Sequence record: OQ174503.1 | Strand: one strand, 5' to 3' | Length of the DNA stretch: 64,000 nt | Source: Escherichia phage REP4 | In this document: piece after piece, positions 35,292 through 38,399 of the stretch | Position numbering within the stretch: position 1 is the first letter of the stretch | How the letters are laid out: every line of letters begins with the position of its first letter | Program-made: the position numbers and the translations under genes | Notes under the pieces: model-generated | Seen by the model: only the letters and a program-made list of their open reading frames with translations | Database searches by the model: none | Told to the model about the DNA's origin: nothing

Positions 35292-35318
35292 TTTATTATC
35301 CTCAGTAGCTATAGTGTT

Positions 35319-35348
35319 ATAATACCACAACTAACCGAGGAAGTAAAC
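35319..35348 (-). promoter_or_regulatory. Early promoter (GTTTAC, 18 nt, TATTAT)
   Basis: Minus-strand GTTTAC at 35343-35348. Confidence 0.6.
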
Positions 35349-35354
35349 AACTTT

Positions 35355-36038
35355 TTATCGTTTTGTTGGAAGAGACAGAGGATCGCACTCTTCCTCTGAC
35401 GGAGCATCTTCAAGACCCATAGCATATCGCAAAGCATACTTCATCATCAGGATGTCTTTCGCACAGTCATGAATAGAATCATGTGCAACGAATCCATCTA
35501 AAGTTCCCTTTGGAAGAGGACACGTGGTCATATCACGAACAAGAAGAAGTGCTTCAATTCTGGTACGAATATCACGCTGATTCCAGAATTTACATGGTTC
35601 TAACTTAAATGTGTCAAGTTCATTCTCAGAAACGCCATTAAGACGTTGAATATCGCGAATGAGATCGACTAAAATTGGAAAATCAAACGACATTCCACGG
35701 CACCAGCCTTGAGATTTCCAAGGATCGATGTTATGTGCATTGATGTAATCATTAAATTTTGCAATACCATCGATAGTGCTCACATCTTCATCTGATGGTG
35801 CAATATTTTTTCGAGCTTCGGGAGACTGATTTTTCCACCATTCGATAGTGCTTTTAGTAAAAAGACGATGTCCTTTTTGGCTTTTTAAATCAAACTTGAT
35901 TTTAATGCCGCGTGAAACTAATTCATCAAATGTTTCAACTACTTCTGGATTAGGGTCAAAGGCAATAACAGCCAAATCAATAACAGCTGCCTTTTCACCG
36001 CTTCCCATTGTTTCAAAATCTATAATAAAATCAAACAT
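35355..36038 (-). CDS. dexA: Exonuclease A (DnaQ-like 3-prime to 5-prime exonuclease) DexA, 227 aa
   Basis: ORF track; size as T4 DexA; DEDDh-type motifs (FDFETMG, DGFVAHDSIHDC). Confidence 0.88.
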   Translation of the reverse strand: MFDFIIDFETMGSGEKAAVIDLAVIAFDPNPEVVETFDELVSRGIKIKFDLKSQKGHRLFTKSTIEWWKNQSPEARKNIAPSDEDVSTIDGIAKFNDYINAHNIDPWKSQGWCRGMSFDFPILVDLIRDIQRLNGVSENELDTFKLEPCKFWNQRDIRTRIEALLLVRDMTTCPLPKGTLDGFVAHDSIHDCAKDILMMKYALRYAMGLEDAPSEEECDPLSLPTKR

Positions 36039-36280
36039 TAAATTTTCCTCGCTAAATCGCGAATTTGACCTACAGTATAATCTTGGATATAAACTTTATT
36101 AATGGGCTCATCAATAAATTTTGCCATAGATTCAATATCTTTTTGTATCTCTTCAAGACTGTATACTATCTTTAAAGCTTTTTCGCGAATAGTAACATTA
36201 TCAGGTCCTGGATTTTCTTGAATGACAGCTTTAACATTTGCCATAAGAGATTTAAACTGATGCAAACTTAATTCAATCAT
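36038..36280 (-). CDS. Hypothetical 80-aa protein; tandem paralog of 36273..36518
   Basis: ORF track start is GTG; ATG at MIELSLHQFKSLM; shared motif LEEI..D......V.I.DY..G.I..L. Confidence 0.5.
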   Translation of the reverse strand: MIELSLHQFKSLMANVKAVIQENPGPDNVTIREKALKIVYSLEEIQKDIESMAKFIDEPINKVYIQDYTVGQIRDLARKI

Positions 36281-36518
36281 TAATAACCGCCTTATAAAGA
36301 TGGCTAATTTCACCTAAAACATAATCACTGATTATAACAGTTTTCACTTCACCGCAAAAGAATTCTAATGCAATCAAATCTCGTTCAATTTCTTCCAATT
36401 GAAGCATTAACTTTCCCGATTCAATTTTCACGTTTTTGCGATTTTTACTATAAGCTATTTCATAAATTTCACTCACTTTATCTTGAAGCAGATAAAACTG
36501 GTCTTTAGTTATTTCCAC
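36273..36518 (-). CDS. Hypothetical 81-aa protein; tandem paralog; apparent GTG start
   Basis: ORF track; no ATG near 5-prime end; GTG preceded by GAGGAAG RBS. Confidence 0.45.
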   Translation of the reverse strand: MEITKDQFYLLQDKVSEIYEIAYSKNRKNVKIESGKLMLQLEEIERDLIALEFFCGEVKTVIISDYVLGEISHLYKAVIND

Positions 36519-36765
36519 AAATAGCTTCCTCAAATTTAATCAGCAGCTTACAGACACTTTCATCTAGCGTAATTACCGTATCTGTATTACTGTGATATGA
36601 TTGTTTTTCAATTCGTTTAATTGCTAGTATAGTATCACTTATAAGATTAAGCTTATAAAGGAGCTCAGCTCCTGTTACCATAACACTGAGATTATCTTGC
36701 TTATCAGTATGCTTCTTTATACCATCTATTAGACGATTTAAATATTTTGAATTGATGTTAATCAT
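36505..36765 (-). CDS. Hypothetical 86-aa protein
   Basis: ORF track; ATG with RBS GAGGATATAT. Confidence 0.6.
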   Translation of the reverse strand: MININSKYLNRLIDGIKKHTDKQDNLSVMVTGAELLYKLNLISDTILAIKRIEKQSYHSNTDTVITLDESVCKLLIKFEEAICGNN

Positions 36766-36771
36766 ATATCC

Positions 36772-38091
36772 TCACACATAAAACACATCATAACGACCAC
36801 GAGTGACACCAACATAAAGAAGCTGCTGAGCTAGTTCAGCATCTGCATAATGAATGCAAGGTGTATAGATAAAAGCACGGTCTACAGACATACCCTGAGC
36901 TTTATGGAATGTTGATGCGGGAAGTGCTTTCACTTTACTAAACTGTGATTTAGCATCCCAAAAATCGCTCCACGGAGCTTTTCCACCTTTATTCCAATTT
37001 TTATAAGTTTCTGCCGTTTTACCTAAAAATAAGTTAAACTTATACAGCTCTTCATCAGATGAAATTATTTTAATCTTTTCACGATAATATTCATCATCGC
37101 CGTAAGTTTCTACTGTTAAATCCCAATGACGAATTAGATATTCCCCAGAAACACCACGAGCTTTAACAAACGTCGATGTATATTCTGCTTCTATAATACG
37201 AACTAATTGTCCGTTATTAAAAATAATTTCTGACACAGGCTTTCCATCAATTTTATATGTTTTAATTAATGGTTCCTGCATTACAATAATTTCACCGACA
37301 ATAAAATCTTTATCAGTTTCAAAAATCTTTTTACGAATAATGCTATTTAACTTGTCAACAGATTTATTCGTAAATGCCATTACACGATTTTCAAACAAAT
37401 CATCTAGTGATTTGACGATTGAAAAATAATTTACCATAAAATCGCGTAAAGCGGTATCACCAGTAAATCCACGTACTCCATGTCCGTCAACAATTTTATC
37501 ATAAATCCACTTACCGTTACGAACATCAGTAGCTACATCAATAATAGGAGCATTACTGCGTTTAACTTCAGTGAGTTCACACTGATAAAAATCTTTATGT
37601 GTAAAGAATGGACTGATATAAGCAGTGTTTTCTCCTGGGTCAACGGGTCTAATTTGCTTATTATCGCCTATTCCAATTATAGTACACCACGGCGGGATAG
37701 TTGAAAGCAAAATTTTAAATAGCTTTCTATCATACATTGACACTTCGTCGCAGATTAATACCCTGCATTTAGCCAAATCTGGTACTTCTTTTTGTTCAAA
37801 AAGAACGTTTTCTTCGTATGTTACTGGGTTAATTTTAAGAATACTGTGAATAGTACTCGCTTCTTTCCCTGACAGTTTTGAAAGAATCTTTTTAGCTGCA
37901 TGAGTAGGAGCTGCTAAAATAATGCCAGTTTCGCCCGTAGATATTAAGGCTTCAATGATGAACTTAGTAAGAGTAGTCTTACCAGTACCAGCAGGTCCAT
38001 TAATAGTTACATGATGTTTCTTTTCTTTAATAGCCCTCATAACGATGTTAAAGGCATTTTTCTGGCCTTCGGTCAAATCATCAAATGTCAT
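36772..38091 (-). CDS. dda: Dda DNA helicase (SF1B), 439 aa
   Basis: ORF track; size identical to T4 Dda; Walker A GPAGTGKTT; N-terminus MTFDDLTEGQKNAFNIVMRAIKEKKHHVTINGPAGTGKTT. Confidence 0.95.
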   Translation of the reverse strand: MTFDDLTEGQKNAFNIVMRAIKEKKHHVTINGPAGTGKTTLTKFIIEALISTGETGIILAAPTHAAKKILSKLSGKEASTIHSILKINPVTYEENVLFEQKEVPDLAKCRVLICDEVSMYDRKLFKILLSTIPPWCTIIGIGDNKQIRPVDPGENTAYISPFFTHKDFYQCELTEVKRSNAPIIDVATDVRNGKWIYDKIVDGHGVRGFTGDTALRDFMVNYFSIVKSLDDLFENRVMAFTNKSVDKLNSIIRKKIFETDKDFIVGEIIVMQEPLIKTYKIDGKPVSEIIFNNGQLVRIIEAEYTSTFVKARGVSGEYLIRHWDLTVETYGDDEYYREKIKIISSDEELYKFNLFLGKTAETYKNWNKGGKAPWSDFWDAKSQFSKVKALPASTFHKAQGMSVDRAFIYTPCIHYADAELAQQLLYVGVTRGRYDVFYV

Positions 38092-38399
38092 CGTAAATTC
38101 CCTGCAATTGGTATACTAACAATACGCCCAGTATCTAAAATTCGCCGATATAATCTTTGTGTGTCTACATCAGGCTTAACATGTTTAACTTCTATTTTAT
38201 TAAACCAAAACTTGCGTGGAGTCTCAACTAATCTCGGAATTCCCATACCTAAAGCTAGTCGATACTGCTCTTTAAGAGTTGTAAAAACTTTATCGGCAAT
38301 CTCCCTTTCAAAAAATACAGCAGGACGATGTTCATCAAGAGGAACAGGCACCGCAAATCCATCTTTATCTCTATACACTATCGCATATACATAAAACAT
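38088..38399 (-). CDS. Hypothetical 103-aa protein (dda.1 position)
   Basis: ORF track; ATGA overlap with dda. Confidence 0.6.
   Translation of the reverse strand: MFYVYAIVYRDKDGFAVPVPLDEHRPAVFFEREIADKVFTTLKEQYRLALGMGIPRLVETPRKFWFNKIEVKHVKPDVDTQRLYRRILDTGRIVSIPIAGNLR

Follow-up and report, generated by a model that had tools for sequence, protein, structure and literature searches.

The stretch of 64,000 nucleotides from Escherichia phage REP4 that was analysed here (sequence record OQ174503.1; referred to as the window) carries, directly upstream of dexA, two small genes which, on the strength of their sequence matches, correspond to dexA.2 and dexA.1 of phage T4, both annotated long ago. 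The analysis supports that these two genes arose by tandem duplication and that the first of them initiates at a GTG codon. Taken jointly, the identity, the paralogy and the GTG start appear to us very nearly certain; our best explanation as a whole, in which a mechanism of action is blended with these three elements, we consider rather probable. As the two genes, their family relation and the GTG start had already been annotated, little changes in these respects. What is added here is the recognition of a very probable third paralogue that has so far gone unlabelled, the description of the junction between dda and dexA as a slot that holds zero to three copies across T4-like genera, and the exposure of the product names 'dextranase' and 'exonuclease' as what look like annotation errors.

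Identity, paralogy and start of dexA.2 and dexA.1

Over bases 35300-38100, the window shares ~97-98% (97.9%) identity with many Tequatrovirus (T4-like) genomes. The genes of this region are arranged on the minus strand in the order dda - ORF3 - dexA.2 - dexA.1 - dexA, forming a five-gene array in which neighbours overlap, except for a 6-nt gap between dda and ORF3. The upstream neighbour dda (36772..38091, minus strand) encodes a DNA helicase of 439 aa and is followed by ORF3 (36505..36765, minus strand), the putative third, divergent paralogue, which encodes 86 aa (pI 6.7) and features an ATG start with a GAGGA Shine-Dalgarno sequence. The TAA stop codon of ORF3 lies 11 nt beyond the GTG of dexA.2, so that the two genes overlap. 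dexA.2 (Y00H in T4; 36273..36518, minus strand, with the GTG at 36518-36516 and the TGA at 36275-36273) encodes a protein of 81 aa (9.5 kDa, pI 4.8), and its Shine-Dalgarno sequence GAGGAAG (36525..36531, minus strand), located 6 nt 5' of the GTG, falls within the 3' end of ORF3. The dexA.2 gene shares an 8-nt overlap, ATGATTGA, with dexA.1 (Y00G in T4; 36038..36280, minus strand), which encodes 80 aa (9.2 kDa, pI 5.8) and runs from an ATG at 36280, overlapping the dexA.2 stop codon, to a TAA that has one base (36038) in common with the ATG of the downstream neighbour dexA (exonuclease A, 227 aa; 35355..36038, minus strand). The tandem ORFs of about 80 aa upstream of dexA to which a sequence-only reading of this DNA had drawn attention are therefore present as described, on the minus strand, and their assignment to dexA.2 and dexA.1 follows from the match of the region to Tequatrovirus together with the agreement of the gene boundaries with the T4 annotation.

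Across 8-9 Tequatrovirus loci (8 in the case of dexA.2), pN/pS amounts to 0.15 for dexA.2, 0.18 for dexA.1 and 0.01 for dexA, and the low values of the two small genes indicate genuine coding sequences subject to moderate constraint. A scan of the region for promoters and terminators returned signal at background level. A hairpin resembling a terminator (TGCTGAACTAGCTCAGCA followed by GCTTCTTTAT) is found at 36824-36841 on the minus strand, inside the 3' end of dda and ~60 nt before its stop codon; it is probably a chance occurrence.

The same reading had recognized a common pattern (LEEI..D / V.I.DY..G.I..L) towards the C-termini of the two ORFs and had taken it as the sign of a duplication, for which it proposed a pairwise alignment as a check. 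The pattern is indeed found in both ORFs, and the alignment bears the duplication out, with homology that spans the full length of the proteins beyond the C-terminal pattern. BLASTP aligns DexA.2 and DexA.1 over 79 residues with 25% identity, 53% positives and one 1-residue gap (E=7e-8), and their Smith-Waterman score of 82 was reached by 0/5000 composition-preserving shuffles, which have a mean of 27.8 +/- 5.2 and a maximum of 57. Both proteins furthermore match phrog_1700 (E=6.6e-49 for DexA.2 and E=4.7e-42 for DexA.1). Near-identical homologues of both bear the precomputed label PF26837 (Phage_T4_Y00H_G), meaning that the paralogy had already been curated; in a Pfam-A release older than PF26837, neither DexA.1 nor DexA.2 finds a match. 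With an identity of just 25% between two helical proteins, both with a high content of E, K, I and L, one might suspect a chance or compositional likeness of helical, Leu/Glu/Ile-rich peptides without common descent. The probability of this appears negligible, considering that the observed score lies above all shuffles with a z-score of ~10, that the alignment is colinear and runs from end to end with its single gap, that single-copy orthologues are intermediate between DexA.1 and DexA.2, and that the predicted fold is common to both (Foldseek rank 4). Sequence comparison thus supports an origin of dexA.2 and dexA.1 by tandem duplication.

Regarding the start of the upstream ORF, the earlier proposal of a GTG codon with a GAGGAAG ribosome binding site holds up: this is the start annotated in T4, it is kept in 19/19 loci and it fits the N-termini of the orthologues. 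The frame of dexA.2 contains an in-frame TGA eight codons 5' of the GTG, and its first ATG is codon 38, leaving TTG 36533 and GTG 36518 as the only earlier candidates. Base-level inspection of the dexA.2 start and of the presence of ORF3 covered 19 natural Tequatrovirus loci, and GTG and GAGGAAG are identical in all of them, with or without the upstream ORF. The N-terminal sequence (M)EITKDQFY of DexA.2 aligns with MIKVTKDQFY of ATG-initiated single-copy orthologues, placing the GTG within one codon of their start, and residues 2-5 are predicted to form a beta strand in the AlphaFold2 model of the family. In a published IP-MS table, Y00H is listed with 70% coverage and with K5 as a modified residue (PMC10097602 supplementary table 2); as the K5 tryptic peptide was matched to the 81-aa entry, it would represent the N-terminal peptide, whereas initiation at the TTG would give LFVEITK.

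Protein databases also contain an 86-aa and a 44-aa version of DexA.2, corresponding to a start at the upstream TTG 36533, which is in frame, or at the internal ATG of codon 38. We judge either start to be very improbable. The TTG overlaps the GAGGAAG purine run and lacks a Shine-Dalgarno sequence of its own, and a different tryptic peptide would be expected from it, K5 in the mass spectrometry data being numbered from the GTG. The position at which the orthologues begin and the strand that residues 2-5 contribute to the predicted fold likewise speak for the GTG, and a 44-aa product would, according to the model, lack two of the three helices. We therefore consider the 86-aa (TTG) and 44-aa (Met38) annotations to be mis-calls, and the sum of these observations supports that dexA.2 initiates at the GTG behind a strong Shine-Dalgarno sequence.

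In phage ime09 (JN202312.1; locus L019, 939-1418), the gene annotated as 'dexA.1' encodes a 159-aa fusion of DexA.2 and DexA.1. This annotation, together with the phrog_1700 profile, which has 160 positions with DexA.2 on 1-80 and DexA.1 on 80-159, could be taken to mean that dexA.2 and dexA.1 are one gene of ~160 aa, expressed through programmed frameshifting at the ATGATTGA overlap. However, the ime09 fusion is accounted for by a single-base deletion just 5' of the gene overlap, which turns GGTTATTAATG into GGTT-TTAATG and which occurs in 0/19 other loci examined. The junction contains neither a slippery heptamer nor an RF2-like shift site, and each half is predicted to be a complete, independently folding domain. 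A single frameshifted gene is consequently hardly credible, and we continue to treat dexA.2 and dexA.1 as two genes. The deletion in ime09 may be genuine or may stem from an error in sequencing; the resulting fusion explains both the 160-position phrog_1700 profile and a 159-aa model in BFVD.

ORF3 and the dda-dexA slot

ORF3 carries no precomputed PF26837 or other Pfam label, and neither direct BLASTP against DexA.1 and DexA.2 nor hhalign against the narrow family profile (E=0.43) gives a significant result. ORF3, DexA.1 and DexA.2 do all match phrog_5263 (E values of 3.4e-7, 6.2e-8 and 3.9e-4 among the three). The family profile was broadened with VR7-, X20- and TG1-type members, all of which bear PF26837. 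Against this broadened profile, ORF3 scores 24.5 bits, with 0/1000 shuffles above 8.0, and hhalign yields E=2e-4 over 77 colinear columns at a probability of just 47%. An AlphaFold2 model of ORF3, for which the input consisted only of its own close orthologues (pLDDT 85), displays the elements E2-5, H6-22, H26-52, E64-67 and H69-84, whose order and boundaries correspond to those of DexA.1. When predicted structures were compared using Foldseek against BFVD, the DexA.1 model found the Sf25 orthologue of ORF3 with a TM of 0.81, and reciprocally the ORF3 model found DexA.2- and DexA.1-type models with TM values of 0.74-0.82. What ties ORF3 to the family is thus its match to the broadened profile and the similarity of the predicted folds, direct BLASTP and the narrow profile being null, and on this basis ORF3 very probably represents a third paralogue, one that is older, more divergent and without a Pfam label.

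ORF3 occurs in 308 phage records, compared to ~496 Tequatrovirus records with dexA.2. T4, which is without ORF3, differs by a single 232-nt indel bounded by short TGA microhomology (T4 locus L002, 2866-2940); the indel recreates a TGA stop codon for dda, and the Shine-Dalgarno sequence and the GTG of dexA.2 are retained. The idea that the intergenic sequence of T4 is a scar retaining the first two codons of ORF3 in frame was dropped, because the alignment made a single 232-nt indel the simpler account.

When 1.84 billion representative proteins were searched exhaustively with the family profile using HMMER (E<=0.001), 11 matches were returned, 9 of which are T4-like family members or fragments; the remaining 2 are long repetitive proteins and were treated as spurious. 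Family relatives are therefore not detectable outside T4-like phages. Within these phages, the number of copies between dda and dexA varies. RB69 (Mosigvirus) has 0 copies, its dda directly adjoining dexA, and one copy each is present in VR5 (Dhakavirus), VR7 (Gaprivervirus), X20 (Winklervirus) and CC31 (Karamvirus). TG1 (Tegunavirus) has two ORFs at this position, the upstream one of which alone matches the profile, and Cronus (Roskildevirus) has two copies, both weak by profile and clear by fold. T4 carries two copies and the window phage REP4 three. Family members are located between dda and dexA on the same strand of a T4-like genome and have a size of ~76-86 aa, and, judging from their distribution, the junction of dda and dexA is a conserved slot in which T4-like genera carry 0-3 copies of a single small fold. 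The downstream gene of TG1 and the ORFs in the slot of Acinetobacter phages reach 1.5-2.5 bits against the profile and are not claimed as members. Between genera, family members are 24-45% identical, compared to 60-69% for the adjacent DexA.

The single copy of Dhakavirus has a DexA.2-like N-terminus and is DexA.1-like elsewhere. The sequences suggest that the two T4 copies may each have retained different portions of their ancestor, and an ancestral single gene, followed by duplication with asymmetric divergence, would fit. As a separate observation, the single copies of Dhakavirus and of some metagenomic contigs (VR5 locus L003, 2498-2737; proteins P0066 and P0095-P0105) look mosaic when compared to the T4 pair, with a DexA.2-like N-terminus (MIKVTKDQFYKL) and a DexA.1-like C-terminus (VYIQDYTVGQIRDL); in the metagenomic P0095-P0105 forms, the segment NPG..N..IREKA is DexA.1-like.

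Predicted fold, expression and possible roles

The AlphaFold2 model of DexA.1 (pLDDT 95, pTM 0.83) consists of beta1 (residues 2-5), alpha1 (6-22), alpha2 (26-53), beta2 (62-65) and alpha3 (67-79). Each of the small proteins is accordingly predicted to adopt a beta-alpha-alpha-beta-alpha fold, in which a bridge of two strands clamps a bundle of three helices. In a Foldseek search of BFVD with the DexA.1 model, the DexA.2 model was found with a TM of 0.85 and members from other genera with TM values of 0.8-0.9, all of them predictions. The predicted fold gave no functional match, and the family profile found nothing meaningful among PDB chain sequences, that is, no solved relative by sequence; the closest structures named are generic three-helix bundles of the PDB, such as the myosin VI lever-arm extension (2ld3), the CheA P1 domain (1tqg) and de novo designs. 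In the broad family alignment, the hydrophobic core positions alone stay conserved. With pI values of 4.8 (DexA.2), 5.8 (DexA.1) and 6.7 (ORF3), the proteins range from mildly acidic to neutral, which makes DNA binding unlikely. Neither conservation nor pI nor the structure searches based on the models would point to an enzyme or a DNA-binding protein.

During T4 infection, DexA.1 and DexA.2 both increase over the time course, and dexA.1 and dexA.2 are classed as early with respect to RNA and as middle with respect to protein (PMC9697503 supplement). The T4 genes from dda.1 to dexA.1 are reported to form one transcript with a single start site (bioRxiv 2024.04.04.588121). CRISPRi-ART knock-down of dexA.1 or dexA.2 was scored 'Not Fit', with values of -0.52 and -0.26 (PMC11879866 supplement), which we read as the absence of a fitness effect, and phage RB69 does without any copy of the family. 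Both proteins have thus been shown to be made in T4 infection and to be dispensable in laboratory hosts.

We tentatively propose that the members of the family are non-enzymatic small binding proteins, fast-evolving and dispensable, that are most likely directed against a host or defence factor. Each small protein would act by stoichiometric binding rather than by catalysis, its binding partner would most probably be a factor of the host or of its defence, and target specificity would diversify as copies are gained by duplication or lost in the dda-dexA slot. This proposal is based on the combination of rapid divergence, a copy number that varies, dispensability and expression in the early-to-middle phase. 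Its non-enzymatic aspect derives from the conservation of the hydrophobic core alone and the mildly acidic nature of the proteins, and fast evolution is concluded from the inter-genus identity of 24-45%, compared to 60-69% for DexA, and from the range of 0-3 copies. We found no homologue with a characterised function and, in the literature on dexA.1, dexA.2 and PF26837, no functional study. Two findings count against the proposal: selection within Tequatrovirus is purifying and not diversifying (pN/pS 0.15-0.24), and the strict synteny with dda and dexA, along with the dexA overlap, would equally fit a role in phage DNA metabolism.

The latter point leads to the main rival explanation, according to which the small proteins would be accessory subunits or regulators of Dda or DexA, namely adaptors or inhibitors by which DNA replication, recombination or the degradation of host DNA would be tuned. 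Such a role would be in line with the slot being kept in Tequatrovirus, Dhakavirus, Gaprivervirus, Winklervirus, Tegunavirus, Karamvirus and Roskildevirus, with the overlaps of the genes with each other and with dexA, and with their co-transcription with dda in T4 (bioRxiv 2024.04.04.588121). On the other hand, RB69 has adjoining dda and dexA genes without any such gene in between, the small proteins diverge far faster than Dda or DexA, their copy number ranges from 0 to 3, and their knock-down has no fitness effect (PMC11879866 supplement). We consider an accessory role to be rather unlikely and retain small binding proteins as our tentative proposal.

A connection to immunity has surfaced for one member of the family. 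DexA.2 is one of only two T4 proteins conjugated to cGAS by type II CBASS (PMC10097602), and in T4-infected type II CBASS cells it is the most enriched cGAS-conjugated protein, modified on K5 (PMC10097602 supplementary table 2); the authors drew no functional conclusion on the cGAS-conjugated DexA.2 (PMC10097602). It is conceivable that DexA.2 is a specific interactor of the Cap2-cGAS conjugation machinery of CBASS, be it as trigger, substrate or decoy, and not a bystander with an exposed lysine, and that the array as a whole represents diversifying anti-immunity inhibitors or decoys. This interpretation, which draws on one IP-MS experiment, strikes us as improbable. PADLOC and NCBIfam scans of the small proteins gave sub-threshold noise only. 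The conservation of the slot makes these genes candidates in T4 accessory-gene screens for host-interaction or anti-defence roles.

Database records and relation to other T4-like phages

The RefSeq product name of dexA.2 is 'dextranase', which appears to derive from the gene symbol 'dex'. The protein is not recognizable as a glycoside hydrolase, being an 81-aa helical bundle by prediction, and DexA.2 finds no match above threshold in Pfam and NCBIfam. Many UniRef and GenBank entries for DexA.1 and DexA.2 carry the name 'exonuclease', and no DEDD/DnaQ-like or other nuclease was recognized in these proteins. One UniRef cluster of these proteins is named 'Tail sheath stabilizer'. All three names are devoid of domain or fold support and look like they were propagated from the gene symbol or from a neighbour.

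Some further records stand out. In a Logan contig (SRR27475560; L034, P0120), a DexA.2 'variant' with 56% identity and an ATG start is encoded on a contig with only 2.9% G. The contig was apparently assembled from T4 reads that had undergone bisulfite or enzymatic conversion, in which case the divergence and the ATG start would be artefacts. Two proteins from short contigs, P0111 (141 aa) and P0117 (112 aa), join the C-terminal 40 residues of DexA.1 to unrelated N-termini, which in one case include a PF02384 methylase fragment, and are probably chimeric assemblies. An 88-aa copy of DexA.2 labelled Enterococcus faecalis (P0019) probably stems from T4-like phage contamination of an Enterococcus faecalis assembly.

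Compared to the T4 reference genome (NC_000866), the window carries the same two genes with equal boundaries: dexA.1 corresponds to NP_049630 (UniProt P32285, Y00G_BPT4) and dexA.2 to NP_049631 (P39418, Y00H_BPT4), the latter with its GTG start. The T4-type proteins are ~91% (DexA.1) and 85-89% (DexA.2) identical to those of the window, and lengths, overlaps and neighbours are alike. Unlike T4, the window phage has the extra 86-aa paralogue between dda and dexA.2, a difference of one 232-nt indel. The single genes of Dhakavirus (VR5, QL01, Bp7), VR7, X20 and CC31 resemble those of the window in slot, size (76-86 aa), profile and predicted fold, and tandem pairs occupy the slot in Tegunavirus TG1 and Roskildevirus Cronus, where the window has three genes. 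The orthologues of these other genera are 24-45% identical to the window proteins and are present in one or two copies, not three.
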